Below the pieces are notes generated by a model. It saw nothing but the letters and a program-made list of their open reading frames with translations, was not told where the DNA came from and made no database searches. A program made the position numbers and the translations under genes. A stretch of DNA of 64,000 nucleotides from an uncultured virus (IMG/VR IMGVR_UViG_3300032605_001371) (Duplodnaviria; Heunggongvirae; Uroviricota; Caudoviricetes), in the IMG/VR virus record IMGVR_UViG_3300032605_001371. One strand, written 5' to 3'. Shown here one piece after another: positions 3,867 through 40,097 of this stretch; within the stretch, counting starts at the first letter, position 1, and each line of letters opens with the position of its first letter.

Positions 3867-4703
3867 GATAACATCCACCCGCGTACAGATTTTCTTTTTC
3901 CAGACATTAATAAACTTACATTTCCTTGATGTAGGTTGTATGTTTTTATAAAATCAAACACTGTCATTCTAACTTCTTCTAGTGTATTTTTATTTTTAAA
4001 TGAGTATACATTGGGGTTATAATTAGGGTGCCCCTTTCCAAATTGAGTTGATTTGTAATTAGGGTTGTTTCTGTAATGATTAATTCCAGAATTTTTACTG
4101 ATTACATATTCTCGAAAGGAGTCATTCCAGTTTGATTTACTTTCTGCTATCTTTTCTATTACTTCTTTAGATTTTGAAGGATTGTTTTCCCTAACATTCT
4201 ATCAGATAAGTCTTTCCTCCAATCTGGGTTATTTTTAGTTCTAGTGTCGATTGCTTTTTTTCTTATATGTTTTTTGTCTTCAGTAGACATGTGCGAAAAT
4301 CGTGATCGAGACAGATCACCTTGTTTTTTTCTTTTTTCGGGAGTCCATGCGTGATCAATTCTATTTTTAAATTCAATAGTTTTAGAATGATGGCTGTCAC
4401 CAAAAACAGTTGCACCTCCGTCGCCCTCTTCAAACTTTAGATTAGCCCACGTTTTCTTCCCATTCTTATCCCGCTCGTCTACTATATTCCACAGTTTAGA
4501 GTAGTATAACCCCATTCTGCTACCTCTTCTTTAGAGTGACACTCTCGTAATATTTCAGTAGTAACATCATACCCATGTGTTTTTATATGCGACCTCTACA
4601 TTTTTCCGGATCCTGGATACTTATATGGATTAGATTGTGCGGTTTTACCTAAGTATTTTAATCCAGTTATGTTATGGGTTTTCTTGTATAGATAAATAGT
4701 CAT
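3863..4703 (-). pseudogene. Degenerate GIY-YIG homing endonuclease with a C-terminal NUMOD1-like HTH domain
   Basis: Manual translation: MTIYLYKKTHNITGLKYLGKT..YPGSGKM*RSHIKTHGYDVTTEIL. In-frame TAG where Trp is expected, a frameshift at the G4 run near 4510 and a second near 4187; ends ..HQGNVSLLMSGKRKSVRGWMLS*. Confidence 0.85.
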
Positions 4704-4773
4704 GCTGATGTTTCCTAAGATAGCATTAGAGTAGTTGGGGTTTGCTGACCCGCGAACTACGTTTATATTTATC
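4701..4773 (-). promoter_or_regulatory. Late promoter plus conserved hairpin leader, copy 1
   Basis: Sense strand TAAATA-N5-GTAGTTCGCGGGTCAGCAAACCCCAACTAC-TCTAATGCT..AGGA..ATCAGCATG. It sits back-to-back with a + strand TAAATA (palindrome 4765-4787). Confidence 0.8.
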
Positions 4774-4802
4774 ATAATGATAAATATATTGATGAGGGTG
4801 TC

Positions 4803-5036
4803 ATGCTTTTAGAAGATATTTTTAGTCCGCCGGTCAATGGTCTACAGGATGTAAATTCTGACAACAGCAGACCTGTGTATAGAACGTCACGCAAGACTAA
4901 GTTGACGCTTAGACAGATTCGAAAGCTTCGTAGAATGCTGGATGTAAGAACATTCGAGAAGCAACAGTACCTAGAAAAGTTACGTAAACAGTATGGTGCT
5001 AAACCTGACGCTGCGGCCGGGGCACCTAGCATCTAG
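4803..5036 (+). CDS. Small basic head-module protein, function unknown
   Basis: Late promoter and GAGGG RBS upstream; lies between the portal and core genes. Confidence 0.65.
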   Translation: MLLEDIFSPPVNGLQDVNSDNSRPVYRTSRKTKLTLRQIRKLRRMLDVRTFEKQQYLEKLRKQYGAKPDAAAGAPSI

Positions 5037-5094
5037 TTATCGTAAAACCTGAATATGAAGGAGACGTTTGTCCTATTTATATAGGAGAAACTCG

Positions 5095-5730
5095 TCAATC
5101 TCGTATTACTATCCAACCTTTAACCGATTTATGTTTACCACTTATTAACCAACTTATGTTCCCTTGATACTTTGATAAATCATGTTTGATCATGAAATCT
5201 TTTGCTGTTAAAATTTCTATTTCACCAGTTTTTACGTGTTTCCATTTATATACAGGTTGATTAACTTTATCTACAAAAGCAAGTGACCTGTTTTGTTTCA
5301 AGAAATGATGAGTTCCGTTTTCTACTCGTTTTTTTCCTCTGAGACTTGCGGCTTCTTTGTCTAAGAAATGATGAGTTCCGTTTTTTACCCTGTCCGACGC
5401 ATGTGAACTACCATCTGCCCTTTTGATCAAGTTGTGGGTATTATTCTGTATTCTGGTTAAGTTCTGTAGCCTATTCAAATCGGATAGTTTTTCAGGTGAA
5501 ACTTTTTGTTTTTTACCTAGTAAAAAACAAGCACCGTAGTCACCTTGAGAATAATGAATATCATAATGTTCTTGAATAGTTACACACTTCAAGTTTATCG
5601 GGTCATTATTTGAATGATCACCGTCTATGTGATGGATTTCATATGATCGATCATTCTCTTCTTTTGGAATAGGTCCGTTGTGTTGTTCGTAGATTCTACG
5701 GTATTTGGTAGTGCCGCAATAAATACACAT
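5095..5730 (-). CDS. HNH homing endonuclease with a NUMOD1-like C-terminal domain
   Basis: YEIHHIDGDHSNNDPINLKCVTIQEH HNH motif; repeated RVKNGTHHFL; C-terminal QGNISWLISGKHKSVKGW. Confidence 0.88.
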   Translation of the reverse strand: MCIYCGTTKYRRIYEQHNGPIPKEENDRSYEIHHIDGDHSNNDPINLKCVTIQEHYDIHYSQGDYGACFLLGKKQKVSPEKLSDLNRLQNLTRIQNNTHNLIKRADGSSHASDRVKNGTHHFLDKEAASLRGKKRVENGTHHFLKQNRSLAFVDKVNQPVYKWKHVKTGEIEILTAKDFMIKHDLSKYQGNISWLISGKHKSVKGWIVIRD

Positions 5731-5798
5731 GCTGATTGCTCCTTATAGCATTAGAGTAGTTGGGTGTTAGCGCACCGTGAACTACATCTTTATTTATC
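5728..5798 (-). promoter_or_regulatory. Late promoter plus conserved hairpin leader, copy 2
   Basis: Sense strand TAAATA-N5-GTAGTTCACGGTGCGCTAACACCCAACTAC-TCTAATGCTATAAGGAGCAATCAGCATG. Confidence 0.8.
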
Positions 5799-5920
5799 TT
5801 TCTCCATATTTATTTTGTATAGCACCGCCAAAAACGCAAAAAAGACTACTTAATACGGTGTTTTTTGTCTCACTGCATAAGTATAATATACAAAGCCATT
5901 TCTATTCAGGAGACAATTTA

Positions 5921-6751
5921 ATGGATATCAGAAAATACGAACAAATGATCAACCTCGTAATCAATGAAGATCACGAGCAAGCATCAGAACTCTTTCACGA
6001 AATCGTAGTAGAAAAGTCACGCGAAATCTTTGAGTCAATTATGGCCGAAGAAGATGACGATGATATGGACGAAGGTATGGGCGGACAAGTAGGTGATCTA
6101 CTTGACGAAATCAACGCCGAAGAAGAAGGTGTTACCGAAGAAGACGAAAGCGACATCGAATTTGATGATGAAGCTGAAGAAGACGGTGAAGACTTCACTC
6201 ACGACCTAGAAGCAGAACACGACGAAAGCGAAGAACACGAAGAAATTGAAGATGCAGTAATTCGCATCGAAGACAAGCTCGACCAATTGATGGCAGAGTT
6301 TGAAGAAATCATGGGTTCAGGCGAAGAAGAAGACTTCGGCGACGAAGAAGATTTCGGCGACGAAGACGAAGAAGATTTCGGCGACGAAGAAGATTTCGGC
6401 GACGAAGACGAAGAAGATGCAGAAGACATGATGGAAGCAGTTCAGCTTCAGAAGGTTTCTGTAACTCACGGTGACAATGGTCAGAACACTAAGAGCCCAA
6501 CTACTTTCAATTCAGGACAAGCTGGAATGGACAGCAAGCCAGTAAAGTTTGCTGACGGTAATGAAAAGGGTCGTACTGCTCCTCCTACTAAGGATCTTAA
6601 GGGCGCAGGACAGTTCAAGAACGTACCAGGAAAGAAGTCACAAGATTTGAGCGCAGCACCTAAGCCAAAGCACGGTGATGACGGTCAAAACACCAAGAGC
6701 CCAGTAGCAGAATCACGCAAGCGTGCTCCTGCTCGTAGACCAACACGATAA
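5921..6751 (+). CDS. Highly acidic prohead core/scaffold-type protein
   Basis: AGGAG RBS before ATG 5921; D/E-rich with EEDFGD repeats; [ILV]-x-E sites; directly upstream of the protease. Confidence 0.65.
   Translation: MDIRKYEQMINLVINEDHEQASELFHEIVVEKSREIFESIMAEEDDDDMDEGMGGQVGDLLDEINAEEEGVTEEDESDIEFDDEAEEDGEDFTHDLEAEHDESEEHEEIEDAVIRIEDKLDQLMAEFEEIMGSGEEEDFGDEEDFGDEDEEDFGDEEDFGDEDEEDAEDMMEAVQLQKVSVTHGDNGQNTKSPTTFNSGQAGMDSKPVKFADGNEKGRTAPPTKDLKGAGQFKNVPGKKSQDLSAAPKPKHGDDGQNTKSPVAESRKRAPARRPTR
6323..6418 (+). repeat. Tandem GAAGAAGAYTTCGGCGAC repeats encoding EEDFGD
   Basis: Four near-identical units visible. Confidence 0.85.
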
Positions 6752-6766
6752 GTAATCTGAGAGCAA

Positions 6767-6907
6767 ATGGCTTTGTACATCAGAAGTGAGAATCGGGCAA
6801 ACGTAAAATCAGTCCCGAATCTCTATGGTTGGACTCACGTGCCACTTTACGGTAGGTATGTGAGTCCACAACCCGCTTCTGAATGCAAACCAAAAGAGGT
6901 GTTATAA
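6767..6907 (+). other. Structured insert with a 46-aa uORF (MALYIRSE...) coupled to the protease gene
   Basis: Three stems (6780-6788/6874-6882, 6789-6797/6814-6822, 6830-6843/6855-6868); TAA 6905-6907 overlaps the protease ATG. Confidence 0.55.
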
Positions 6908-7545
6908 TGGCTCTATATTTAAGAGAAAATTTGACCTTTGATCGCGCTAGTATGGTGGTCGAATCAGTCAAGGATGAGGGCACCGATCTTAAGACGCTCT
7001 ACATGAAAGGTATTTTCATCATGGGCGGAATTAAGAACGCAAATGAGCGTATTTACCCCGTCAACGAAATTGAAACTGCGGTAGATACTCTCAACAAGCA
7101 AATACACGAGGGTTACTCGGTGCTTGGTGAAGTCGATCACCCAGACGATCTAAAAATAAACCTAGACCGTGTCTCTCATATGATCACTCATATGTATATG
7201 GACGGACCAAACGGTTATGGTAAACTAAAGATTCTTCCTACTCCAATGGGTCAACTCGTAAGAACAATGTTGGAATCAGGAGTGAAGCTCGGTGTGTCCA
7301 GTAGAGGTAGCGGCAACGTTAACGATATGGATGGTCGAGTCAGTGACTTTGAAATAATCACTGTAGATATCGTTGCTCAACCGAGTGCTCCGAATGCATA
7401 TCCTAAGGCAATTTATGAAGGTCTTCAGAACATGAAGTACGGACATAAAGTATTAGAGATTGCTAAAGACGCTCAAGGCAACAAACAAGTCCAAAGATAC
7501 TTGGCTGAGGAAGTAAAACGCCTCATCAATGATCTAAAGTTATAA
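6907..7545 (+). CDS. Prohead core protease (T4 gp21-like)
   Basis: KNANERIYP, LGEVDHP, KLGVSSRGSG, DIVAQPSAPNAY motifs; GAGG RBS before ATG 6907. Confidence 0.93.
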   Translation: MALYLRENLTFDRASMVVESVKDEGTDLKTLYMKGIFIMGGIKNANERIYPVNEIETAVDTLNKQIHEGYSVLGEVDHPDDLKINLDRVSHMITHMYMDGPNGYGKLKILPTPMGQLVRTMLESGVKLGVSSRGSGNVNDMDGRVSDFEIITVDIVAQPSAPNAYPKAIYEGLQNMKYGHKVLEIAKDAQGNKQVQRYLAEEVKRLINDLKL

Positions 7546-7561
7546 TAAAGGGATCACAGAT

Positions 7562-8653
7562 ATGCTAGATGCTATCAAACCATTACTTGAAAGTGGACTC
7601 ATTAACGAAGACGTAGGCAGAGAACTTAACGAAGCCTGGGAATCTAAGTTAACTGAGGCTCGCGCTCAGGTTCGTGCAGAACTTCATGAAGAATTTGCAC
7701 AACGTTACGAGCATGATCGTAACGTCATGGTAGAAGCCCTAGATAAGATGATGACAGAAAATCTTTCAGAAGAAATTGCAGAATTTAACGCTGAAAGACA
7801 AGCAATGAACGAAGACCGCGTAAAGTCTCAATTGAAACTACGTGAAAACGCAACCAAGTTCAACGATTTCATGGTTACTAAGCTAGCCGAAGAAATCCGC
7901 GAACTACGTGCTGATCGCAAGGTTCAAATGGAAAACCAAAAGAAGCTAGAACAATTCATTGTTCACGCCCTATCAAGAGAAATCAAAGAATTCGCTGTTG
8001 ATAGACAAGCAGTAGTAGAAGCTAAGGTCAAGCTCGTTGCAGAAGGTCGCAAGCAACTTGAAGCACTCAAGGCAAAGTTTATTGCCGAAAGCGCTAAGAA
8101 GGTTAGCGGTCTTGTTGGAAATCAACTTAAGGGTGAACTATCACAACTTAAAGAAGACATCAAATCTGCTAGAGAAAACAGCTTCGGCCGCAAGATTTTC
8201 GAATCATTCGCTAGCGAATTCTCAGTAACTTATCTCAATGATAAGGCTGAAAATCGTAAAGTAATGAAGGCACTTGCAGCCAAAGACCGTCAACTCTCAG
8301 AAGCTACAGCTAAGCTTGCACAAGCAACTAAGTTAGTAGAATCAAAGGATCGTGAAGTCCGTATCATTAAAGAATCAAATCAACGTGAGAAGGTAATGGG
8401 TAATCTATTGTCAAGTCTCAACGCTGAAAAGGCTCAAGTGATGAAGACTTTACTAGAAAGCGTTCAAACAGCAAAGCTACAGAACGCATTCGATAAGTAT
8501 TTGCCAGCCGTTCTTAATACAGGTTCAGAAGCTAAGCCTTCTAAGTCTGTTATTGTAGAAGCAACTGGTAATAAAACTGCCAATACAGTACAAGAAGTCG
8601 ATATGTCTGAAACAGACAATGTAATCGACATCAAGCGTCTGGCAGGGCTTTAA
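7562..8653 (+). CDS. Prohead scaffolding protein (T4 gp22-like)
   Basis: Coiled-coil protein with many [ILV]-x-E sites; between protease and capsid genes. Confidence 0.8.
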   Translation: MLDAIKPLLESGLINEDVGRELNEAWESKLTEARAQVRAELHEEFAQRYEHDRNVMVEALDKMMTENLSEEIAEFNAERQAMNEDRVKSQLKLRENATKFNDFMVTKLAEEIRELRADRKVQMENQKKLEQFIVHALSREIKEFAVDRQAVVEAKVKLVAEGRKQLEALKAKFIAESAKKVSGLVGNQLKGELSQLKEDIKSARENSFGRKIFESFASEFSVTYLNDKAENRKVMKALAAKDRQLSEATAKLAQATKLVESKDREVRIIKESNQREKVMGNLLSSLNAEKAQVMKTLLESVQTAKLQNAFDKYLPAVLNTGSEAKPSKSVIVEATGNKTANTVQEVDMSETDNVIDIKRLAGL

Positions 8654-8681
8654 TTAGACATAGTTTAGGAGAATATACATA

Positions 8682-9878
8682 ATGTCAAAAGTACTCTTAG
8701 AAAGCCGTTGGGACGAAACTAAAAGCGCCCTGCTTGAAGGCTTAAAAGGCAATCGTCGTTCAACTATGAACGTATTGTTTGAAAATACGAAGAAGCAGCT
8801 TCTTGCTGAATCTTCAGCTGGCACTACAACTGCTGGTAATATCGCAACTCTAAATCGCGTTATTCTTCCAGTAATTCGACGTGTTATGCCTACTGTTATT
8901 GCTAACGAACTTGTTGGCGTGCAACCAATGACCGGCCCAGTCGGTCAGATTCACACCCTTCGTGTTCGCTATGCAAATAGCTTGACTGACAACTCAGCAG
9001 CAGCAACTTCTGTAACTGCTGGTGAAGAAGCACTTTCACCATTCAAGATCGCGCAAGCCTATTCTCGCGTTCCTAATGATGCAACCTCCACTAGCTACTA
9101 CACTGGTGCCGACACTGCTTCTCTAGAAGGTAATGGCGGAAAGCAAATCTCAGTACAAATCTTGAGACAAGCTGTTGAAGCAAAGTCACGTAAGCTACAA
9201 GCTCGCTGGACTTTCGAAGCTGCACAAGACGCACAATCACAACACGGGATTGACGTTGAAGCAGAAATCATGGCAGCACTTGCACAAGAAATCACTGCTG
9301 AAATCGACCAAGAAATCTTGCTCTCACTCGCAACTCTTGCGTCAACTGAATATACTTACAACCAAGCAACTGTATCAGGTACAGCTACTTACGTTGGTGA
9401 CGAACACGCTGCTCTTGCAGTACTCATCAACCGTGTTGCTAACTTGATCGCACAACGCACTCGTCGTGGTGCAGGTAACTGGGCTGTTGTATCTCCAGCT
9501 TCCTTGACTGTTCTTCAGTCAGCAACTACTTCAGCTTTCGCACGTACTACTGAAGGTACTTTCGAAGCCCCAACTAACACTAAGTTCGTTGGTACTTTGA
9601 ACGGTGCAATGCGCGTTTTCGTTAACAGCTATGCTCCAGACACTCAGCCAGTACTCGTAGGCTACAAGGGTTCTTCGGAAACTGACGCAGCAGCATTCTA
9701 CTGCCCATACATTCCGTTGATGTCATCTGGCGTCGTTCTTGATCCGACTACTTTCGAGCCAGTCGTTTCATTCATGACCAGATATGGCTACATCGAATTG
9801 ACGAATACCGCGAGTTCGTTTGGTAATGCGGCTGACTACGTTGGCGAAATTGCGGTCCAAAATTTAACATTCCAATAG
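8682..9878 (+). CDS. Major capsid protein (T4 gp23-like)
   Basis: LVGVQPMTGPVGQI, VEAKSRKLQARWTFEAAQD, AFYCPYIPL and MTRYG motifs. Confidence 0.96.
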   Translation: MSKVLLESRWDETKSALLEGLKGNRRSTMNVLFENTKKQLLAESSAGTTTAGNIATLNRVILPVIRRVMPTVIANELVGVQPMTGPVGQIHTLRVRYANSLTDNSAAATSVTAGEEALSPFKIAQAYSRVPNDATSTSYYTGADTASLEGNGGKQISVQILRQAVEAKSRKLQARWTFEAAQDAQSQHGIDVEAEIMAALAQEITAEIDQEILLSLATLASTEYTYNQATVSGTATYVGDEHAALAVLINRVANLIAQRTRRGAGNWAVVSPASLTVLQSATTSAFARTTEGTFEAPTNTKFVGTLNGAMRVFVNSYAPDTQPVLVGYKGSSETDAAAFYCPYIPLMSSGVVLDPTTFEPVVSFMTRYGYIELTNTASSFGNAADYVGEIAVQNLTFQ

Positions 9879-9919
9879 ATCACGTTACAGTGATAACTGT
9901 TAGAAAGTTATACAAGGTG

Positions 9920-9958
9920 GAAAAGGGGACAGAAATGTCCCCTTTTCTATTGCTTTTT
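9920..9958 (+). terminator. Intrinsic terminator after the capsid gene
   Basis: GAAAAGGGGACA-GAAA-TGTCCCCTTTTC hairpin followed by a T-rich tail. Confidence 0.85.
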
Positions 9959-9997
9959 ATTCCGTTATGATAAATAATATTACTGAAAGGTGATATT

Positions 9998-10777
9998 ATG
10001 TTCAAAGAAAATAAATATACTAAACACTACATGCTCCTTATTGAGAAAGCAAAAAATCGTACATTGCCAAAAGGGCAATACAAAGAACGACATCATATTA
10101 TTCCTAGTTCAATGGGAGGCAATGATGATAAAGATAATAAGGTGTGGCTAACAGGAAGAGAACACGCACTTTGTCATTGGGCATTGTTAAAGATGACTGA
10201 AGGAGAAGACCGCGTCAAGATGTCATATGCGTTTAATGGGATGAACGCTGAAAATGAGTTTCAGCAAAGATACCACTCACGTATCATAACTAGAGCATAT
10301 GAAAAACATCGGATAGCACACGCAAAAACTCATTCAGAAAGAATGAAAGGTAAACCAGCTTGGAACAAAGGTCAAAAACTTGAAGGTGAAGAGTTAGAAA
10401 AACATAGAGAAAGAACACGCAACAGAAAGATAGATCCTGTTAAACAGGCTGAAGGACAGTTAAAAAGAATCGCTAAAGTAACTGGACAAAAACGCTCTGA
10501 AGAAACCAAATTGAAACAAAGTTTAGCACTCAAGGGAAAACCTAAGGGACCAATGAGCGAAGAACAAAAGATAAAACGTTCAATAAAGCAAAAAGGTGTA
10601 TCTAAACCAGAAGGATTCGGTGATAAAGTTGCTGTTAGGATGAAAGAAGAGTTCTCAAAAAATAATCCTAATAACAGAGAAGACTTAAAGAAAATTTGCC
10701 CACATTGTCATAAAACTTTTGGTCCCAGTAACTATTCTCGTTGGCACGGTGATAACTGTAAACAGAAAGACGTGTAA
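9998..10777 (+). CDS. HNH homing endonuclease (MobE/NUMOD3-like)
   Basis: YKERHHIIPSSMGGNDDKDNKVWLTGREHALCH; NUMOD3-like RSEETKLKQS repeats; C-terminal CPHC..RWHGDNC. Confidence 0.88.
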   Translation: MFKENKYTKHYMLLIEKAKNRTLPKGQYKERHHIIPSSMGGNDDKDNKVWLTGREHALCHWALLKMTEGEDRVKMSYAFNGMNAENEFQQRYHSRIITRAYEKHRIAHAKTHSERMKGKPAWNKGQKLEGEELEKHRERTRNRKIDPVKQAEGQLKRIAKVTGQKRSEETKLKQSLALKGKPKGPMSEEQKIKRSIKQKGVSKPEGFGDKVAVRMKEEFSKNNPNNREDLKKICPHCHKTFGPSNYSRWHGDNCKQKDV

Positions 10778-10823
10778 ACTGAATAACGAAGAAGAACCAA
10801 TAACCGAATACTGGAAACCTCTA

Positions 10824-11381
10824 ATGAAAATTTCTGAAATGACCATGAAAGGTCCGGATCTTTCGCTACAAGCAGAACAATTTGCAAACAAGAACAAAGA
10901 TCATTGGTATAAACACGGAAAGCATATAGCCGACATAGAAAACTATAAGGTTTTACAAGACGGAATTTATTATTCTATGTGGAATGATACAACCCTAATT
11001 GCTTGTTGCTCACTATCTGATAATGATAACATCATCGATGATGTTTATGTCAGTCCTGAACACAGGGGTAATAAACTTTTATCCATGATGTTATGGTTTT
11101 TTAAAACTAGGCTGAACCGTTCACCGTTAATGATAGGGCAAGTACATTCTAAAATGATGCAGGAAGTAGTTAAAGGATTGAGTAGATTTGACAAGTATTG
11201 GTATAATGTCAAAACTAATAAGAAAGAACCGTTCTCGTTAGATACATTAGATGATTATTATAGTTATTTTAATCCAACAGATTGGCGCCTCATACTAGAG
11301 AATACCGGAGACTTCTCAGCTTGGCCAATGTTTAGTGGAAATGGTTTTGTGATGGAATCATATTTACCGTATGTTGATTAA
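10824..11381 (+). CDS. GNAT-family acetyltransferase (putative)
   Basis: IDDVYVSPEHRGNKL resembles the acetyl-CoA-binding motif A; probable start MKISEM. Confidence 0.6.
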   Translation: MKISEMTMKGPDLSLQAEQFANKNKDHWYKHGKHIADIENYKVLQDGIYYSMWNDTTLIACCSLSDNDNIIDDVYVSPEHRGNKLLSMMLWFFKTRLNRSPLMIGQVHSKMMQEVVKGLSRFDKYWYNVKTNKKEPFSLDTLDDYYSYFNPTDWRLILENTGDFSAWPMFSGNGFVMESYLPYVD

Positions 11382-11432
11382 TTGTACGGTGATAACTGCA
11401 AACACCGATAAATAACTAAAACGGGGTTATTC

Positions 11433-11945
11433 ATGAGCGCAGACCTTTTCAGAACATACATTGACATAATCAATGAGAACAACAATCCTGACGATGACAG
11501 CAAGCTTGGTCCCACAAACTTTCAACGGTCTTTTTTCTCTGGTAAGGGACCGCAACTACCAGAACCAATGGAAATAGTAGACGATCCACAAGAGATTACT
11601 ACGCTAATACACAAAGCTTATAATACTCCAGATTCTGAAGAAGATCCTAACGCAGCCATCCAAGCTGCTGATGTTCGTAAAATAGTCAATTCTATTTTGC
11701 TTGATCTAGATCCATTGGAAGAACGCCTAGCTAGAATGGCTTTTGGTATCGGAGTCCCTGAAATGTCTCTAGAGCAGATAGGAGAAAAGCTTGGTATAAA
11801 CCGCGAAGGAATACGCCAACGACTGGATAGAGCATTGAGAAAAATTAGGTACCGAATATCAAAGAAATCAAATATAAAAAGTCCGTCTCGAAACAATAAA
11901 CCGATATATGGCGCCGCCCGTGATCCTAGAATCACAGGGTTATGA
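11433..11945 (+). CDS. Stand-alone sigma70 region-4 (HTH) domain protein
   Basis: LDPLEERLARMAFGI..EMSLEQIGEKLGINREGIRQRLDRALRKIR matches the RpoD region 4 pattern; no region 2 is recognisable. Confidence 0.8.
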   Translation: MSADLFRTYIDIINENNNPDDDSKLGPTNFQRSFFSGKGPQLPEPMEIVDDPQEITTLIHKAYNTPDSEEDPNAAIQAADVRKIVNSILLDLDPLEERLARMAFGIGVPEMSLEQIGEKLGINREGIRQRLDRALRKIRYRISKKSNIKSPSRNNKPIYGAARDPRITGL

Positions 11946-11960
11946 TGTAAACGGTTATAC

Positions 11961-12542: not shown

Positions 12543-12544
12543 TC

Positions 12545-13123: not shown

Positions 13124-13145
13124 TTTTAGCTAAGAAAGCATTAAA

Positions 13146-13415
13146 ATGAAAGACAATGAAGTGATTGAAATTCTAGATGATGGTACGGTATACTACTTTG
13201 ATTTAGCAGTATGCGATCAGCAGGCAAATGCAGTAATCGAAGAACTTCTTGAAAAACAAAACACTGTTCCAAACTATGATTTTACTGCTACTATGTTTAG
13301 TCTGTTTGTAAAGTCAGTAGATTTTCTCAGAGAGGCTGGATGGCTGACCGAAGAATTAATTGATGAGATTGTAGATGCTAGTGAGTCGGGTGAGGAAGAC
13401 GAAGCCGACGACTGA
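13146..13415 (+). CDS. Small acidic hypothetical protein
   Basis: ORF in the operon; no recognisable motif. Confidence 0.55.
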   Translation: MKDNEVIEILDDGTVYYFDLAVCDQQANAVIEELLEKQNTVPNYDFTATMFSLFVKSVDFLREAGWLTEELIDEIVDASESGEEDEADD

Positions 13416-29663: not shown

Positions 29664-29665
29664 CT

Positions 29666-30445: not shown

Positions 30446-30619
30446 TAAAGTCTCCTGAGTTTGAAACAAAGTATTGAAAGCTGTATTCTGCCTTCGAATG
30501 TATTTAAGGTCTGTAATTAAGTAAACTATGAGCATCTAGGAAATAGTTTCCTATGATAAATATAATGTTCGTTTCAAAAACGTTTCCTTCATTAATACGC
30601 TGTAAAGATAAATACTTAC

Positions 30620-31821: not shown

Positions 31822-31822
31822 T

Positions 31823-32344: not shown

Positions 32345-32347
32345 GAA

Positions 32348-32376
32348 TTGACATATAACACCCAGCGTGATACTAT
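32348..32376 (+). promoter_or_regulatory. Sigma70-like promoter with extended -10
   Basis: TTGACA-17nt-TACTAT with TGn. Confidence 0.7.
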
Positions 32377-32382
32377 ATGATT

Positions 32383-33183
32383 ATGGATCATTATATGACG
32401 CTGGGTGTTTCTAGGACAGCCACCCAAGAAGAAATTAAAAAAGCATATCGTAAATTAGCAATGGAGCATCACCCTGATCGGGGAGGTGATCTAGCAAAAT
32501 TTCAAGAAATCAGTGTGGCTTATGAAATATTAGGTGATGCTGACAAGAGAGCAGCATATGACAGGCCTCCCCAGCCTTCGCCGCAATTTGGACCGGGTGG
32601 ATTCTCATTCAGCTTCAATGGATTTGATTTAAACGAGTTTTTTGCACAATCATTTGGCGGACCACAAAACTTTGCACAAAATAGACAACCACAGAAACCA
32701 GTTTTTAGAACTAGAGTATCAGTGTCATTGCAAGATGCATTTAGTGGTGCCGAGCAGGTACTGCAATTAGGTACGCCAAACGGCGTAAAGGTCGTGAATG
32801 TTAAGGTGCCACCCGGCATCTCGTCTAGAAGTAGCATTCGATATGACAATCTGATTGAAGAAGGTACGCTAATCATCGAATTCCATGTTCTAGATGATCT
32901 ACGATTTGACAGAAAAGGTGACGATTTGTATACGAATATACCTATCTCTGTCTTAGATTTGATTGTCGGTACTAAAATTGAGTTTACTACCATAGGCGGA
33001 AATAAAATTGAGGTTGATATTCCAGCTGGAACTCAAACATATCATCAGTTTAGACTGCCTGGCTACGGAATGCCCACAGCCAACAACGGTTATGGTGACC
33101 AAATACTATTGTTAAAGGTAATAGTCCCTGCTAACATCGACAATGATATTATTGAAAGTATCAAGCGTAGTCGATCTAAATAA
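32383..33183 (+). CDS. DnaJ/CbpA-like co-chaperone (class B, no Zn finger)
   Basis: J domain with HPD, G/F-rich linker, DnaJ C-terminal domain. Confidence 0.9.
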   Translation: MDHYMTLGVSRTATQEEIKKAYRKLAMEHHPDRGGDLAKFQEISVAYEILGDADKRAAYDRPPQPSPQFGPGGFSFSFNGFDLNEFFAQSFGGPQNFAQNRQPQKPVFRTRVSVSLQDAFSGAEQVLQLGTPNGVKVVNVKVPPGISSRSSIRYDNLIEEGTLIIEFHVLDDLRFDRKGDDLYTNIPISVLDLIVGTKIEFTTIGGNKIEVDIPAGTQTYHQFRLPGYGMPTANNGYGDQILLLKVIVPANIDNDIIESIKRSRSK

Positions 33184-33203
33184 CTTTTTAAAAGGATTAA
33201 AAG

Positions 33204-35468
33204 TTGCAATCATCCCCTGAAATTGAAAATATTATTGAACATGCAGTCCAAGCTGCAAAGCAAAGACAACATGCATATGTTACTGTAGAGCATTTGCTTT
33301 GGGCTCTCGTTTCGCACCCTCCTTTTAAGAAATGTCTAAATGGCATCAATGTAGATACGGATTTGATGCTTGCTGAAATTGAGGCTTATCTCAATGGACT
33401 GCACGCAATTGTTTCTAAAGATCCAAATTGCCAACCAAAGCGCACTAACACGCTTGAACGTGTGATGAATCGTTCTGTGACACAGGTTCTATTCACCGGC
33501 CGCAGACAAGTTGCTACTATTGATTTGTACATGAGCATCGCAACAGAATCTAATTCTCATGCTCACTATTTCCTACTTAAGTACGGTGTCTCTAAGTCTG
33601 ATTTTCTTACTTACTGGCAGAAGCATTATGCGGGTGGCGACTACGCAGCTATCAGTCCAAATCAGGCTGACGAAATTCTTGATGAGTATACAATCAATCT
33701 GACTGATTTGGCTCGTCAAGACAAGTTGGAGCCAGTGATCGGTCGTCATAAGGAAATCGATGACATTATCAATGTTCTTGCCAAGAGATTCAAGTCTAAC
33801 GTACTTATGGTCGGCGATCCGGGTGTAGGTAAGACTGCTATCGCTGAAGGTATCGCAAACGCAATCGTTGCCGGAACAGTTCCGGACTTCCTACTAGACC
33901 ACGAACTTTATTCACTTGAAGTTGGTTCGCTTCTTGCTGGTTCTCGTTATCGAGGTGACTTTGAAGAAAAGGTCAAGCAGGTTCTTGATGCGTTGAACGT
34001 CAAAAAGAAGGCGATTCTGTTCATTGACGAAGCGCATACTATGCAAGGTGCGGGCGGATCCACTACTGGATCAGTTGATTTTGCTAACATGATCAAGCCT
34101 GCAATCACTAAGGGTACGCTTAAGGTCATTGCTTCTACCACGTGGGAAGAATTCTACGAATCATTTGAAAAGGATCGTGCGTTGATGCGTCGATTCTATC
34201 GTGTTTCGGTTGATGAACCTTCTCATGACACGACTGTTCGTATTCTTAACGGATTATCTGAACGTCTCAATGATTTCCACAATGTGAAGATTACACCAGA
34301 AGCCATTAAAGCAGCAGTAGAGTCCGCTGATCGATACATCCATGATCGTAAGAATCCTGACAAGTCTATCGACCTACTAGATGCGGCGTGTGCTAAGCAA
34401 CGTGTCCTGCAGAACAAGGACGCTGAAATTACTACGGCACTTATTCACGAACAAGTTGAAAAGTTCACCGGCGTTCCGGCAGATAAGTTGAGCGGTGATA
34501 ACTTCGACCGGATCAATAATCTTGAAATGAACGTCAAGAATAAGCTGTATGGGCAGGATGAGACTGTCGATAAGGTTCTTGAACGAGTGTATGTCTCGTT
34601 TGCGGGGATCGGTAACGATAAGAAGCCGATTGCGAGCTTCTTGTTCTTGGGCCCAACGGGTACGGGTAAAACGGAATTGGCTAAGTTGCTGTCCAAAAAT
34701 TTGGATATGCCGCTTCTCAAGTATGACATGTCGGAGTACGCAGAGAAGCACAGCGTAAGCAGCTTGATCGGGCCGCCCCCGGGCTACGTAGGCTTTGGCG
34801 ATTCACAAGTTCAAGGTGGACGCCTAATTTCAGACTTGAGCAAGAACCCGCACTCTATTCTTCTGTTCGATGAAGTCGAAAAGGCTCACCCTGATATCTT
34901 CAACATCTTCCTACAGATTTTGGATGAAGGTCGAATCACCGGATCAAACGGTAAGGAAGTTTCTTGTAAGAATACTCTTATCATTATGACTTCTAATTTA
35001 GGGTCGGCTGACGGTGAACGAAACAATATTGGTTTCGGTTCGCAAGAACGCACTGGTGAAGATGATAAGGCTCTTAAGCAATTCTTCAAGCCTGAGTTCC
35101 GTAATCGTCTTGATATGGTCTGCAAATTCCAAAAGCTAGACATGCTTTCGATAAAGAAGATCGTTGTGAAATTCTTGGAAGATGTTAAGAAGCCGTTGCT
35201 TGACAAGCACAATATCACGCTGAACCTCAGTGAGGAAGTCATTGAGTATTTGGCTGATAAGGGCTATGATAGCAAGATGGGTGCAAGACCTCTCGGTCGT
35301 AAGATCGATGAATTGATTCGTGTTCCTCTTTCAAAGAAAATTTTGTTTGAGCGTATTGCTAACGCAAACATTATGGCTGTGTTGGAGAACAATGAAATCG
35401 TGTTTCAAGTAACTTCAAAGCAAACTGCGAGAATTGGCGATGACGGCATCATTCAAGTCGAAGGTTGA
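33204..35468 (+). CDS. clpA: ClpA-like AAA+ unfoldase
   Basis: Clp N domain, two Walker A motifs (GDPGVGKT, GPTGTGKT), IGF ClpP-docking loop, GARPL. Confidence 0.92.
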   Translation: MQSSPEIENIIEHAVQAAKQRQHAYVTVEHLLWALVSHPPFKKCLNGINVDTDLMLAEIEAYLNGLHAIVSKDPNCQPKRTNTLERVMNRSVTQVLFTGRRQVATIDLYMSIATESNSHAHYFLLKYGVSKSDFLTYWQKHYAGGDYAAISPNQADEILDEYTINLTDLARQDKLEPVIGRHKEIDDIINVLAKRFKSNVLMVGDPGVGKTAIAEGIANAIVAGTVPDFLLDHELYSLEVGSLLAGSRYRGDFEEKVKQVLDALNVKKKAILFIDEAHTMQGAGGSTTGSVDFANMIKPAITKGTLKVIASTTWEEFYESFEKDRALMRRFYRVSVDEPSHDTTVRILNGLSERLNDFHNVKITPEAIKAAVESADRYIHDRKNPDKSIDLLDAACAKQRVLQNKDAEITTALIHEQVEKFTGVPADKLSGDNFDRINNLEMNVKNKLYGQDETVDKVLERVYVSFAGIGNDKKPIASFLFLGPTGTGKTELAKLLSKNLDMPLLKYDMSEYAEKHSVSSLIGPPPGYVGFGDSQVQGGRLISDLSKNPHSILLFDEVEKAHPDIFNIFLQILDEGRITGSNGKEVSCKNTLIIMTSNLGSADGERNNIGFGSQERTGEDDKALKQFFKPEFRNRLDMVCKFQKLDMLSIKKIVVKFLEDVKKPLLDKHNITLNLSEEVIEYLADKGYDSKMGARPLGRKIDELIRVPLSKKILFERIANANIMAVLENNEIVFQVTSKQTARIGDDGIIQVEG

Positions 35469-36108
35469 GGTCGAAGACCGAACCCTTCTATACTACAACA
35501 ATTTCAAGTATAAGGTTGTGTTAAAAGACAATGCAATTAGCTTTGTATTTAGAGCCAAAACCATTGAACAATACGTGCAGTACGTTAAGAACCAAATATT
35601 ACTAAAGGACCGGTGGTCCCGAAAAATAAGGTTAGAAGATATAGATTTGTCTAAAATGGAAGGCCTCATTAAATTTAGAGCAAATCACTACAAAGATCCT
35701 AAAATTCAAACCCGGCAGTATGATTCTGCATTTTCTGTCTATACAAATGACGAGAATATCATTAAGGAGATTTGTAAATTTTGGTCAGATCCTAAAATTC
35801 ATGAAGCGAATTTGTTACCAGCCGGTATAAAATATTTCAAGAAGGATCCGCCTGCTAAGTTTAGGGTTTATCTAAAAAACTTTTACGACAGAGACGGCAA
35901 TATTAAGGAAGACCTAAAAGAATACTTGAAAAGAACACCGGATCTTGTCATTAGTGAGTCTTTGTCAATGGTATTAAATTATAATTTTACTTACCTAAGC
36001 ACTAGCCACTTTATCAACTACAATGATGAAAAGAATCTCATGATGATGTATCTGATGTTTCCGAACATCATAGGTAAAAGTTACAAATTAGAAAAGAAAA
36101 CGGTATAA
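35434..36108 (+). CDS. Hypothetical protein
   Basis: 224-aa ORF; no motif recognised. Confidence 0.6.
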   Translation: MAMTASFKSKVEVEDRTLLYYNNFKYKVVLKDNAISFVFRAKTIEQYVQYVKNQILLKDRWSRKIRLEDIDLSKMEGLIKFRANHYKDPKIQTRQYDSAFSVYTNDENIIKEICKFWSDPKIHEANLLPAGIKYFKKDPPAKFRVYLKNFYDRDGNIKEDLKEYLKRTPDLVISESLSMVLNYNFTYLSTSHFINYNDEKNLMMMYLMFPNIIGKSYKLEKKTV

Positions 36109-36139
36109 GATAAATACTCTAATAAAATGGAGTATTTTT

Positions 36140-36304
36140 ATGGCAAAGGTCGTCGAAGACGTACTTGTTATCAAGCTTAGTAAGCTTGTGAAGGATGATG
36201 CTGCTGACAGCGGAATCCTTACTAATGAAGTGCAATCTGCACTGGAACAAGTAGCCCAAGAACTAGTAGGCGATGGGATCATAGTGGAGGTTGCGAAAGC
36301 TTAA
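36140..36304 (+). CDS. Small hypothetical protein (54 aa, not in the ORF track)
   Basis: Late promoter, GGAG RBS, MAKVVEDVLVIKLSKLVKD...; TAATG-coupled to the next gene. Confidence 0.65.
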   Translation: MAKVVEDVLVIKLSKLVKDDAADSGILTNEVQSALEQVAQELVGDGIIVEVAKA

Positions 36305-36990
36305 TGTCGCAACTACCTTACACATATTTACTTAAATGGTCAACTACCGGAATGAAGTACTATGGTGTCAGGTACGCCTCTGGTTGTCATCCGACAGATT
36401 TATGGAATCCATACAAGACTTCAAGTAAGCACGTTAAATCATATGTTCAGGAGTATGGAAATCCTGACATAATTTCCGTACGGAAGGTATTTCGTGGTAA
36501 AAACGCGGTAGAAAAGGCTCAACGCTGGGAACACACCGTGTTACGTAGAAGGAAAGTAATAACCAATCCTACGTTTTTAAATCGCACGGATAACAAATCG
36601 ATATCACCTGAAGATTGTGGTAAATCTGCCAAAATTGCAGCAGCCAAACGAAAAACCCGAAACAAGGACAATTGGCCTGCATTGATGGAACTGTCTATTA
36701 GGTTTTCAGGCCGAACAAAAGAAACCCATCCACATATTGCAGCGGCGGCAGCCAAACTTGCCGGCCGAACAAAACTGACCCACGCATACTTAGCTAAGAA
36801 AGCTACCCAAACTGCCAGTCAAACGGCTAAAGTTTGGGAGATAACCTCACCTGTCGGAGAGATAATTACCATCGTTAATATGTGCGAATGGTGTCGAAAT
36901 AATAACGTCAAACGTGGATCAATAAAAAACGGAGTAACTCGAAACGGGTACACGTTTCGAGTTATATCTAATCCTGGAGTAAACCCGTGA
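36304..36990 (+). CDS. GIY-YIG (Seg-like) homing endonuclease
   Basis: YTYLL..GMKYYGVR, YKTSS, FLNRT motifs; overlaps both neighbours. Confidence 0.75.
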   Translation: MSQLPYTYLLKWSTTGMKYYGVRYASGCHPTDLWNPYKTSSKHVKSYVQEYGNPDIISVRKVFRGKNAVEKAQRWEHTVLRRRKVITNPTFLNRTDNKSISPEDCGKSAKIAAAKRKTRNKDNWPALMELSIRFSGRTKETHPHIAAAAAKLAGRTKLTHAYLAKKATQTASQTAKVWEITSPVGEIITIVNMCEWCRNNNVKRGSIKNGVTRNGYTFRVISNPGVNP

Positions 36991-37373
36991 GCCAATCTAC
37001 GACCCTAATCCTATTCCCACAAACAACCTATATAAATCCAGGCAACGGAGCACCCTACACTGTTATCGGCGATTCAAAACCAGCGGCGGCCTATTATTTA
37101 GGAAACAAGGATTTGCAGACCGTTAATATTAGTTTGACACAATGTACGGGTAATATCGTGATTCAAGCTACGTTGGCACCTGCCCCACTTGACACTGACT
37201 GGTTTAATGTGTATGAATTAGAAGCTAACGCAAATGCTGTAGCAAATTCAGCTCCACAGATTGCATCAAACGCCTCAATGTATACTAATATCGATGGAAA
37301 TTTCGTATACATGCGCGCACAGATTCAGGACTTTCAAGGTGGCGGTGTCAATTACGTGAAACTCAGTTACTAA
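36987..37373 (+). CDS. Hypothetical beta-rich protein
   Basis: GTG start overlapping the upstream stop. Confidence 0.6.
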   Translation: MSQSTTLILFPQTTYINPGNGAPYTVIGDSKPAAAYYLGNKDLQTVNISLTQCTGNIVIQATLAPAPLDTDWFNVYELEANANAVANSAPQIASNASMYTNIDGNFVYMRAQIQDFQGGGVNYVKLSY

Positions 37374-37374
37374 C

Positions 37375-39009
37375 ATGAAGGTGATAGCAGTTTATCCGGG
37401 AAGATTTCATCCCTTTCACAAAGGCCACGCCGCAAGTTTTAAGCAGCTGGCTAGTAGATTTGGTTTGGAAAACACTTACCTTGCTATCTCTGCTAAACAA
37501 GATCAACCAAAGAGTCCTTTTTCAGCACAAGATCGTGCAAAGATGGCAATGGCTTTGGGCATTCCATCAAAAAACATTATTGCAGTGAAGAATCCGTACT
37601 CAGGCGATGAGTACATGAAAATGTTTCAAACTAAAGGATATGATCCCGAACATACTGCTTTGGTATTTGGTGTCAGTAAAAAGGATATGGAGGGTGATCC
37701 TTCTATGGGCATTGAACCCGATCCTCGCTTCTCCTTTAAGCCTAAAAAGGATGGTACAGCATCTTACTTTCAGCCGCTAAAAGGCAAAAACATTAAACCA
37801 ATGACACAGCACGGATACATTCTTTCTACTGACGTAGCAGAGTTTCCTATCGCTGGCAAAACTATGCGCGATGCTAGTGCTATTCGTAAGGCATATGCAG
37901 GCTCTGATAACAAAACAAAAATGAAAATTCTTACAGATTTATACGGAGACTCAGCAGAGAAAATGAAGCAGACATTCGACAATAACCTACAAGTCACTGA
38001 GAGCATCCGCGCTCTAATCAACAAAATCAAACCTCTTATCAGTGAGGCGTCCCCTCAACAAAAGGCAAAGTTTGTTAAGCTATTGAGTGAAGCTAAGAAG
38101 ACACTAAGAAATACTAACCCATGTTGGGATGGGTACAAACCAGTTGGCACCAAAAAGAAGAACGGTAAGACTGTTCCTAATTGCGTTCCGGTGAAGGAAT
38201 CGTATAGTGTTCAACGTATCTATGGTCCATCAGACGTAAACATTGTAAAAGATTTAGGAAACGGATACTTACTTTCATACGAGATGGACGAAGATGATGA
38301 TGTTCGTAAGGAAGGTTTTGAAGTAGTTAAGCTTGCTCCAAACGAAACAAAGAAATATATTCCAGTTGGTACCCTGAAAGTAAGTCCTTATCCTGGCAAT
38401 CGTAAGCCTGGTCAACTTGAAGCTGAAATAAACCGTATTATCGCGGCTGATGAAGCCAAAAGTCCTCTGGACGAAGAAGAGGATCCATTTGATATTGATC
38501 CAGAACTAAATGCTACTGTATCTTTTGCACAACAGCACTATCGTAATCCAAAAAAGCAAGCTGCATTTATCAAGTTTGTTCAGCGCAGCCTCAAGCATTC
38601 TAAGGAAGACGATGAGCGTTTAGATAAAGAAGTCGATGAACTAAAAGACAGAGTTGATACTCTGGACCGAAAGGTTGGAAAAATGAATTCTTCCAAATCG
38701 GTAGATTTTCCTGCTCAAAGATTGAAGGAAGGCACTATGAAACCGACTCATGTTACTGGTGAAGAAAAATCTGGTTCTGTAGAGGCCTTAGAAAAAGCAT
38801 TGCTAAGAACCAAAGCGCCCGGCGTTAAACTAGACTATGACAAAATAGATAAAATGATGCAATTAATCTGTAAAAAATATCATCTAACCGGTGATAAATT
38901 ACATAACGATTTTGTGAAAAAGCATCGTGTGGTTCCCGATAAATGGATCGTAAAACAAACAGTTAAAGAGAGTTTTACAAAAAACGCTGATTATCTAGAC
39001 GAAAAATAA
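37375..39009 (+). CDS. HIGH-family cytidyltransferase-like domain fused to several small modules
   Basis: YPGRFHPFHKGH (HxGH) and ASAIR motifs, then short modules separated by [ILV]-x-E. Confidence 0.75.
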   Translation: MKVIAVYPGRFHPFHKGHAASFKQLASRFGLENTYLAISAKQDQPKSPFSAQDRAKMAMALGIPSKNIIAVKNPYSGDEYMKMFQTKGYDPEHTALVFGVSKKDMEGDPSMGIEPDPRFSFKPKKDGTASYFQPLKGKNIKPMTQHGYILSTDVAEFPIAGKTMRDASAIRKAYAGSDNKTKMKILTDLYGDSAEKMKQTFDNNLQVTESIRALINKIKPLISEASPQQKAKFVKLLSEAKKTLRNTNPCWDGYKPVGTKKKNGKTVPNCVPVKESYSVQRIYGPSDVNIVKDLGNGYLLSYEMDEDDDVRKEGFEVVKLAPNETKKYIPVGTLKVSPYPGNRKPGQLEAEINRIIAADEAKSPLDEEEDPFDIDPELNATVSFAQQHYRNPKKQAAFIKFVQRSLKHSKEDDERLDKEVDELKDRVDTLDRKVGKMNSSKSVDFPAQRLKEGTMKPTHVTGEEKSGSVEALEKALLRTKAPGVKLDYDKIDKMMQLICKKYHLTGDKLHNDFVKKHRVVPDKWIVKQTVKESFTKNADYLDEK

Positions 39010-39020
39010 TTCCACCCCCT

Positions 39021-39063
39021 GTCTTCGTTGTAAATAACTGTATAGTTTTACAACAAAGAGGAC
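39021..39063 (+). promoter_or_regulatory. Late promoter embedded in an RBS-occluding hairpin
   Basis: GTTGTAAA (39027-39034) pairs with TTTACAAC (39047-39054); TAAATA at 39031-39036; GAGG at the stem base. Confidence 0.55.
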
Positions 39064-39066
39064 TTA

Positions 39067-39969
39067 ATGGCACGTAAATCAAAAAATTCAAACGTCACTA
39101 TCGCTAAGCCGAACGGCGAGCAACAAACTGTACCTGCAGAACAAGTACAAGAGGTTATTGAGCAGGCTGCTCAGGAACAAAAGCCACAAGAAGGCCAAGT
39201 TCAAGTAAACGTAGACTATCTACGTACCACTAAGGTTCACATCGCAATGCCATGCTACGGTGGTATGTTGACTGAATCTACATTCATGTCATTTATCAAG
39301 TGGGCAAATACTGCACGTCAATTGGGTGTCGACTGGACTCTCGAAACCATGACCAATGAGAGTTTAATCAGTCGTGCAAGAAATACTCTTACTGCTAAGT
39401 TTCTTGCAATGCCGGACGCAACTCACTTGTTCTTCGTTGACGCTGATATTGGTTGGGAACCATGGCACTTGCTAGTCCTCTTGAACAGAGATGTTGATGC
39501 GATCGGGGGCCTATATCCAATGAAGACTATGCCAGTTAAGTGGGTAGTTAATGGATTTGAAGGCGCAGAAGAAGGCCCTGATGGCTTGCAAGAAGTATCT
39601 AAGGCTGGTACTGGATTTCTTCTTATGAAACGACGCTGTTTTGAAAAGTTAAACTCACATCCGGCTGTTAAGCAATATAAAAACGATATCGGTCTTGATC
39701 CCATGTACGATCAGTATTTGAAGACTTATTTTGATACTGCTGTTCGCCAAAATCGCTATTATAGCGAGGACTGGACCTGGTGTGAGAACTTTAGAGATTT
39801 AGGCGGTAAGATTTGGGTTGACAAGCGAGTATTGCTACGTCACTCGGGAAGCTATGTGTTTTCAATGGAAAATCAGCAGTATTTGCTTGATCAAATCGGC
39901 CCCATGTGGGCTGAAGCGCAGAAGGCAAAAGGCTACAAGATTATTGACGAAAACGGAAACGAGATTTAA
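39067..39969 (+). CDS. GT-A fold glycosyltransferase-like protein
   Basis: IAMPCYGG, SLISRARN, LFFVDADI (DxD), GTGFLL, SEDW. Confidence 0.75.
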   Translation: MARKSKNSNVTIAKPNGEQQTVPAEQVQEVIEQAAQEQKPQEGQVQVNVDYLRTTKVHIAMPCYGGMLTESTFMSFIKWANTARQLGVDWTLETMTNESLISRARNTLTAKFLAMPDATHLFFVDADIGWEPWHLLVLLNRDVDAIGGLYPMKTMPVKWVVNGFEGAEEGPDGLQEVSKAGTGFLLMKRRCFEKLNSHPAVKQYKNDIGLDPMYDQYLKTYFDTAVRQNRYYSEDWTWCENFRDLGGKIWVDKRVLLRHSGSYVFSMENQQYLLDQIGPMWAEAQKAKGYKIIDENGNEI

Positions 39970-39983
39970 GTTTCTATAGGACT

Positions 39984-40014
39984 GGGAGGGGAGAGAAATC
40001 TTCCCTCCCTTTTT
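39984..40014 (+). terminator. Intrinsic terminator
   Basis: GGGAGGGGAGA-GAAA-TCTTCCCTCCC followed by TTTTT. Confidence 0.85.
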
Positions 40015-40027
40015 GGATATTTCGTAA

Positions 40028-40097
40028 TAAATAAAAATGTAGTTCGCGGAGGTGAGATTCCCAACTACTCTAACACTGTTATGGAGTATCAGCAATG
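40028..40097 (+). promoter_or_regulatory. Late promoter plus conserved hairpin leader, copy 3
   Basis: TAAATA-N5-GTAGTTCGCGGAGGTGAGATTCCCAACTAC-TCTAA..GGAG.ATCAGCAATG. Confidence 0.8.

Follow-up and report, generated by a model that had tools for sequence, protein, structure and literature searches.

We analyze a 64,000-nt stretch (the window) of the uncultured virus record IMGVR_UViG_3300032605_001371, in which three homing endonuclease genes (HEGs) begin with the same cassette of about 77 bp. A sequence-only reading had placed the three copies at 4701-4773 (minus strand), 5728-5798 (minus) and 40028-40097 (plus). We reproduce these coordinates together with the reported motifs and spacing, including the inner stems GGGT/ACCC, GGTG/CACC and GGAG/TTCC and the 3x1 internal loop. 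The pattern GTAGTT-N-AACTAC occurs exactly three times in the window, with no fourth copy, and a covariance model run on the window gives the three copies 79-84 bits (all three are in its training set) and nothing else more than 14 bits. Overlooked in that reading were two features: a second TAAATA box, which lies on the opposite strand within the opening codons of each of the three genes, and another conserved hairpin in the cassette. The late-promoter box of phage T4 is TATAAATA; by analogy with T4 we read TAAATA, which many genes of the window have upstream, as the late-promoter box of this phage. The parts of the three copies are listed below, where "sense" refers to the strand of the gene, "antisense" to the strand opposite, and SD to the Shine-Dalgarno sequence.

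4766..4771, minus strand: copy 1, sense late-promoter box TAAATA, from sequence; a putative promoter with the start predicted at +6 (4760)
4731..4760, plus strand: copy 1, antisense hairpin 2, with a 6-bp outer stem, a purine-pyrimidine (R-Y) pair between two bulged G, an inner stem and a loop of about 6 nt
4704..4730, plus strand: copy 1, predicted antisense 5' G, hairpin 1 and linker A; CUG/UAG base with a conserved G·U, and the complement of the SD inside
4693..4698, plus strand: copy 1, antisense late-promoter box TAAATA inside codons 2-4, from sequence and a synonymous-site test
3863..4703, minus strand: copy 1, cargo, a broken GIY-YIG (Seg-like) homing endonuclease gene; TAG at 4596-4598; relatives match phrog_314
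5791..5796, minus strand: copy 2, sense late-promoter box TAAATA, from sequence
5756..5785, plus strand: copy 2, antisense hairpin 2; the R-Y pair is G·U here and A·C on the gene strand
5731..5755, plus strand: copy 2, antisense 5' G, hairpin 1 and linker A; CUCCUU is the complement of the SD AAGGAG (5739-5744, minus)
5720..5725, plus strand: copy 2, antisense late-promoter box, from sequence
5095..5730, minus strand: copy 2, cargo, an intact HNH endonuclease of 211 aa (Pfam HNH_3)
40028..40033, plus strand: copy 3, sense late-promoter box, directly after a terminator-like hairpin and T-run (39984-40014)
40039..40068, minus strand: copy 3, antisense hairpin 2, a fold predicted from sequence
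40069..40093, minus strand: copy 3, antisense 5' G (40093), hairpin 1 and linker; hairpin 1 spans the SD GGAG (40083-40086)
40100..40105, minus strand: copy 3, antisense late-promoter box, from sequence
40095..40789, plus strand: copy 3, cargo, a frameshifted GIY-YIG homing endonuclease gene, inserted before the TAAATA (40801) of the next gene

Both hairpins fold in all three copies on the antisense strand, with z-scores from -1.7 to -2.9; on the gene strand the values are -1.9, -0.9 and 0.1.

The copies in the window belong to a large and unnamed family found in uncultured T4-like jumbo phages, which nearly always heads a GIY-YIG or an HNH homing endonuclease gene. Viral contigs, scanned three times with a different part of the pattern left free each time, yield at least 123, at least 126 and at least 123 loci, and a scan of metagenomes finds at least 122; counts from these scans refer to the matches listed. 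The covariance model R1 has 8, 13, 13, 4 and 1 matches in five virus records (G001-G005) and none in five cultured jumbo phages related by their capsid protein (0/5), and blastn against cultured phages returns only chance matches. Cellular genomes contribute 15 pattern matches, of which four lack the hairpin and are due to chance and 11 are true copies, all on contigs of metagenome-assembled genomes (MAGs). These MAG contigs are probably mis-binned phage contigs; at one of them (L375) the neighboring genes look, by reading, like tail and head genes. That the element is no named RNA family, as had been suspected from the window alone, holds in Rfam 15, which has no match on it (window at gathering score; positions 4500-6000 to E 10; 20 loci to E 5 and E 10). 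To our knowledge, the hammerhead, HDV/theta, pistol and twister folds do not fit the element either, and the Rfam scans agree.

Covariation and the strand of the fold

For the structural alignment, we picked by hand 83 copies, diverse and of similar length, from 208 distinct cores, and wrote them in the antisense direction. In the consensus, a one-base linker connects two hairpins; 97.2% of the cells are paired and 15 of the 19 pairs show compensatory changes. The covariation score is reached by none of 500 shuffles, a control that ignores relatedness. The compensatory changes first noticed among three copies thus persist in the larger alignment. Hairpin 2 has two bulged Gs and, in the parsed copies, an outer stem fixed at 6 bp. 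Covariation also links the base that follows CTA to the one that precedes CAG, and the CRCG and CY motifs are invariant in 114/114 copies when left free in the search. The inner hairpin is found in both orientations, with seven exact reverse-complement pairs (for instance L098 and L182), an inversion that probably arises by template switching.

An invariant core amid freely covarying stems (CRCG and CY; a base of C-G, U-A and G·U; the 6-bp stem) is a property that a structured ligand or catalyst could have. The antisense RNA would then be the site of a host or phage protein, or a small ribozyme, co-regulating the nucleases without any pairing to the mRNA. The flipped pairs fit as well: an inner loop that can be inverted is not read for its sequence. 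Against this stand the lack of an Rfam match, the small number of conserved unpaired bases, and the lack of a candidate partner, since phage-encoded ProQ/FinO (PF04352), Hfq and RNase III are found in none of five phage records (0/5). The cargo proteins do not offer a common partner either, as their alignments A2 and A3 match each other with a probability of 0.7%, that is, with no detectable domain in common. We consider this alternative quite unlikely.

An A·C pair on one strand is a G·U pair on the opposite strand. Read on the gene strand, the outer stems of the 120 cores from the stem-free scan comprise 720 cells, with 690 Watson-Crick pairs, 29 A·C, no G·U, and 1 other (cores with fewer than 4 of the six pairs were filtered out in this test); over 54 distinct stem types, A·C outnumbers G·U by 28 to 0. 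The metagenome cores, to which no pairing filter was applied, give 22 A·C versus 2 G·U in 117 cores, and 21 versus 2 in the 104 new ones. For hairpin 1 the wobble asymmetry is 95 versus 1, and the antisense basal G·U is kept in 82/83. The pair between the bulges is, on the gene strand, G-C in 138 cases, A·C in 28 and A-T in 11, and it is never G·T. The loop-closing pair serves as an internal control: in the metagenome set it has both wobbles in about equal numbers (11 vs 10). We read it as unselected and flipping with the loop, which argues against a mutational bias. From the wobble asymmetry we conclude that the conserved fold is on the antisense strand. The minimum free energy is lower for the antisense than for the gene strand in 212/232 copies (means of -6.0 and -2.7, respectively), and the basal C-G of the hairpin that contains the SD has a mean predicted probability of 0.88 on the antisense strand versus 0.07 on the gene strand.

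The sequence-only reading had proposed instead a cis-acting structured 5' leader of the HEG mRNA, with a stabilizing hairpin at the 5' end and a pairing that sequesters the SD and the start codon. Hairpin 2 does fold on the gene strand too, at the predicted 5' end of the mRNA, and the SD is partly paired there; hairpins that sequester the SD are also a known control of T4-type HEGs (PMC2988022). Copies 1 and 2 do contain the proposed ATGCT/AGCAT pairing, but over the family it forms in only 47/283 members. This count, the wobble asymmetry, the basal pair at 0.07 versus 0.88, and the 14/397 copies in which the transcript would start inside the stem all speak against a fold conserved for the mRNA, which in addition leaves the second box unexplained. 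A sense leader is for these reasons very unlikely.

Two facing candidate promoter boxes

The TAYTTA motif, the reverse complement of TAAATA/TAAGTA, is found no more than 16 nt after CAGY in 224/234 cores from searches that did not require TAYTTA; the distance from CAGY is mostly 4-6 nt. The antisense box falls in all three frames of the gene (198, 23 and 22 copies), and 8/251 copies have no box. In genes that start with M-x-I-Y, the third base of codon 2 is T in 155/155 (74.8 expected), and the Ile codon is ATT in 151/155, against a background of 40%. The second box is thus conserved at the level of the DNA. Nuclease genes without the element do not have it (9/9 by eye, and 3/3 in a sample from the protein-first search described below). 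One such locus, L609, retains the protein start MTIYLY with ACA as the Thr codon, and reads TAAATA-N5-ATG.

Downstream of the sense box there is a T at +5 in 94% and a G at +6 in 93% of 228 copies; for the antisense box, the values are 87% and 73%. Many native late genes have a leaderless look, with the ATG 4-5 nt after TAAATA in 20/105 boxes (window positions 30609 and 58166; loci L453-L532). These two observations together lead us to place the transcription start there for both boxes, and from the boxes we infer one transcript in each direction. The claim that the entire element lies downstream of a late promoter stands, with the box 5 nt upstream of the whole element in 370/397 copies. In the 14/397 copies where the sense spacer is 3 nt, the pyrimidine-purine start is inside the stem, which indicates that a complete stem is dispensable for the mRNA.

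The nearest upstream gene, for 134 copies, is divergent in 56 cases, tandem in 37, and unclear in 41. Among the 56 divergent neighbors, 22 have a TAAATA/TAAGTA box of their own, and many others have, by eye, TTGACA-type promoters. Several other explanations of the arrangement were tried and rejected. The antisense box is not a replacement promoter for the neighbor, as divergent neighbors have their own promoters. It is not a by-product of Ile-Tyr codons, given its presence in all three frames, the bias at synonymous sites, and its absence from element-less genes. The cassette is not an invertible switch, with 0/283 inverted arrangements.

Convergent boxes with a nearly fixed spacing and the same start motif could also act by transcriptional interference. 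Two facing late promoters about 65 bp apart would collide with or occlude one another, and the hairpins would only stabilize or terminate the counter-transcript, with no need for pairing to the mRNA. Hairpin 2 and its tail in copy 1 do score as terminator-like on the antisense strand; the same terminator scan did not detect copy 2. Interference has no use for two hairpins, an invariant G·U or bulged Gs, and we regard it as rather unlikely.

Cargo genes and surroundings

The sequence-only reading had assigned the three cargo genes to two GIY-YIG and one HNH endonuclease, and this assignment is borne out. Copy 2 heads an HNH gene (Pfam HNH_3, E 5.5e-13), and copies 1 and 3 head genes of GIY-YIG type by motif and by tblastn to intact relatives; Pfam has no GIY-YIG match on the downstream fragment of copy 3. 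It had escaped notice that the genes of copies 1 and 3 are broken, the first by a stop (TAG at codon 36) and by two changes of frame (its intact relatives are matched in three frames), the other by one frame change. The copy 3 stretch is identical in loci L454, L455 and L426, which possibly have one common source. At the copy 3 site, the element is present in 2/54 distinct downstream regions (L453, which is the same phage, and L496, with another leader; three more loci are unparsed). The site is empty in the relatives L456 and L457, which are 87% identical, so that cassette and gene are an insertion between the terminator and the TAAATA of the next gene.

Over the family, motif rules classify the cargo of 236 contexts as GIY-YIG-type in 150 cases, of which 14 are doubtful, and as HNH-type in 60; the remaining 26 are of another kind or short. 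Amongst 30 selected cargo proteins, Pfam finds GIY-YIG, SegE, HNH, NUMOD3 or DUF7487 in 20, a weak unrelated match in one, and none in nine. The homing endonuclease family phrog_314 is matched by 9/13 members of alignment A2 and 13/17 of A3, and A2 has no match in the PDB. An open reading frame (ORF) of at least 123 aa follows 101 of the 110 copies that have enough flank. Searching by protein first, we find the cassette at 77/80 loci (51/54 distinct leaders), an upper estimate because these loci are the best matches to cassette-bearing proteins. The leader is conserved while its cargo varies, as had been noticed in the window: there are 21 identical hairpins each found on more than one nuclease class, and the HNH gene of L041 and the GIY-YIG gene of L353 share an entire element letter for letter. 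The element is tied to unrelated nuclease families and shuffles between them.

Alternatively, the element could be a recognition site in single-stranded DNA (ssDNA), similar to attC or to the ends of HUH transposases, that mobilizes the cassette, with TAAATA...TATTTA as terminal inverted repeats. The identical leaders on unrelated nucleases, the inner-loop inversions, and the G·T wobbles and extrahelical bases on one strand would agree with such a site, as would L609 and L500/L504, element-less leaderless alleles that lack exactly the segment from the spacer to the ATG. However, the element is almost never found away from a nuclease-type ORF, none of 283 arrangements is inverted, the boxes match native late promoters down to the TAAGTA variant and the start spacing, and there is no recombinase beside the copies examined (a genome-wide search was not made). 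We find this explanation highly improbable.

Some cassettes head ORFs of about 140 aa without a visible catalytic motif (L126:1268-1693, L130:775-1200 and L295; L126 has NUMOD3 only). In the long variants L049, L082, L094 and L190, the start codon is shifted upstream, so that the conserved CAG-like motif is now coding, and the distance to TATTTA is unchanged. Two related loci have, in their flanks, a Polynucleobacter-1 RNA at 110 bits and a partial match to a group I intron (L163:105-243, plus; L131:1-102, plus).

The window itself is the structural region of a T4-like jumbo phage, with portal, protease, capsid, clamp loader and DNA polymerase genes. Its capsid protein shares 63-67% identity with the capsid proteins of PA5oct, Vibrio phage 2.275.O, Phosso, BF and 121Q, and the nearest virus record is G001 (259 kb, 73% complete), which has all sampled words in common with the window. 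The portal gene (807-3866, plus, 1019 aa) encodes an intein domain at residues 359-740 (Pfam Intein_splicing), inside which lies an HNH_3 match. Three free-standing nuclease genes of the window have no cassette: an HNH gene (9998-10777, plus), a SegE-like GIY-YIG gene (36304-36990, plus) and a PvuRts1I/DUF559-like gene (62126-63025, minus). An ORF of 76 codons at 4803-5033 (plus), without a Pfam match, has a separate TAAATA (4781) that stands back to back with copy 1's sense box. The late genes of the window include a sigma-70 region 4 protein (11433-11945, plus), a DnaJ (32377-33183, plus) and an ATP-dependent protease (33204-35468, plus). The region 59400-60460 has repeat units of 30-90 nt (KNPTE-like) across short ORFs, which are maybe fragments of one repeat gene.

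A putative antisense RNA and its comparison with known systems

The reading that we favor, and which we consider probable, is that an antisense RNA of about 60-65 nt with two hairpins covers the SD, pairs with the leader, and damps the expression of the nuclease. The element would be a portable control cassette of about 77 bp on the start of free-standing HEGs. From the sense TAAATA, transcription of the HEG mRNA would begin with the first base of the outer stem, and the facing TAAATA/TAAGTA box in codons 1-4 would start the antisense RNA just upstream of the start codon. Hairpin 1 would begin at +2 and bear the complement of the SD; hairpin 2, with the fixed stem and the two bulged Gs, would make the 3' end together with a U-rich tail. 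By pairing with the fully complementary HEG leader, the antisense RNA would block the loading of ribosomes, and the pairing would probably promote decay, so that late nuclease output stays low. An SD-like word is inside hairpin 1 in 218/232 copies, the predicted RNA ends 0-2 nt short of the AUG, and the anti-SD in hairpin 1 has a mean predicted unpaired probability of 0.63 on the antisense strand. Leaders are more similar within a genome than between genomes (0.713 vs 0.685; permutation p 0.004; 37/38 parsed), and predicted cross-duplexes reach about -65 kcal/mol, versus -112 for self. Both results suggest that cross-talk in trans between the copies of one genome is possible.

Several points weigh against an antisense RNA that acts by pairing. 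The copies of the family are kin to one another, so our counts overstate the number of independent events. For the strand test, the first three pairs of the inner stem have more G·U than A·C (18 vs 11, nearly all at the loop-closing pair), the terminator control (5 G·U, 3 A·C, 1 other; n=9) is too small, and G·T wobbles in ssDNA would likewise favor one strand. The SD in the predicted sense leader has a mean unpaired probability of 0.43; being only partly open, it may be subject to some occlusion in cis. With both promoters in the same late class, repression would adjust how much is made and not when. The tail after hairpin 2, mostly with 3-5 U in 8 nt, makes a weak terminator. Plain antisense pairing leaves the invariant bases unexplained (the CUG/UAG base, the two bulged Gs and the fixed 6-bp stem), and the lack of phage-encoded ProQ/FinO, Hfq and RNase III in those five records leaves pairing, too, without a phage-encoded partner protein. 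Two lake metatranscriptome runs, with a 7% word share and contigs only, have zero depth over 4412-5839 (copies 1 and 2) and are uninformative.

A broader version of the antisense reading would make this RNA the core of a genome-wide control of HEGs. The invariant G·U base and the two bulged Gs at a fixed distance of 6 bp would be read by a common factor or be catalytic, and the 4-13 nucleases of a phage that bear the cassette would all be throttled in trans, together with those of any phage co-infecting the cell, as multi-copy inhibition or homing immunity. The variable stems would define compatibility groups, and the cassette would spread as a unit of its own. We present this version as a rather unlikely extension. 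If the antisense reading is correct, a standard antisense-RNA cassette on both GIY-YIG and HNH genes would be a new mode of control for these selfish genes, it would account for the tolerance of a jumbo phage for a dozen nucleases, and it would add to Rfam an abundant family of small RNAs that it lacks. A unit of less than 80 bp with a synonymous knock-out site is directly testable by reporter.

Phage HEGs are controlled, according to a review (PMC2988022), by sense-strand hairpins, operators, promoter choice and transcript processing. T4 I-TevI/II/III and segB, Aeh1 mobE and seg43(25) have a hairpin that sequesters the ribosome binding site (RBS) together with a late promoter (PMC2988022). 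They resemble the cassette in having a late promoter and a hairpin at the start of an HEG, limiting its expression. Their hairpins form on the mRNA strand, and the late promoter bypasses them; the cassette, by contrast, is wholly downstream of its box, has its fold on the other strand, and comes with a second box that faces the first. It shows neither a predicted RBS hairpin on the mRNA strand nor a late promoter positioned so that late transcripts would lose the 5' arm. The fractured-gene HEGs of the Global Ocean Sampling (GOS) data, GIY-YIG and Vsr-like, also have one hairpin motif before different endonuclease families in aquatic phage metagenomes (PMC2677866). There, TATAAATA is inside the hairpin, which is read as RBS sequestration, and the main text, which we compared without its motif figures, does not use the word "antisense" (PMC2677866). 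CfrI of cyanophage S-PM2 is a phage antisense RNA adjoining a homing endonuclease gene; with about 225 nt, and tied to psbA and one HEG, it is not a portable start-of-gene cassette (PMC12197685). Fremin 2023 reports candidate structures upstream of GIY-YIG and HNH genes (PMC10690425). In the accessible literature we find no description of the cassette; the alignments of Fremin 2023, which were unreadable to us, may contain it, and the main text of Weinberg 2017 (PMC5737381), whose supplement was also unreadable, does not mention "endonuclease".

Amongst antisense systems, IS10/Tn10 is a selfish element with facing promoters, in whose RNA-OUT/RNA-IN system the antisense RNA, of about 69 nt, is complementary to the translation initiation region (PMC5006887). 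The cassette would likewise oppose the translation start of a selfish gene with an antisense RNA, and multi-copy inhibition is plausible here too. IS10 differs in its transposase cargo and host-type promoters (PMC5006887). The cassette has late boxes of phage type, an invariant core with bulges in its pair of hairpins, and cargo genes of the unrelated GIY-YIG and HNH kinds; there is no sequence relationship, as judged by the lack of an Rfam match. FinP and RepX are antisense RNAs of similar shape, with two stem-loops (PMC8136791). Their targets are in plasmid conjugation and replication and they depend on FinO (PMC8136791), whereas the cassette has a one-base linker and the five phage records, as noted, have no FinO/ProQ. 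The cassette is a member of neither RNA-OUT nor FinP. On sequence grounds it is a real and abundant RNA element of two hairpins, as yet without a name, on the strand antisense to the starts of phage HEGs, and probably a new variation on cis-antisense control.

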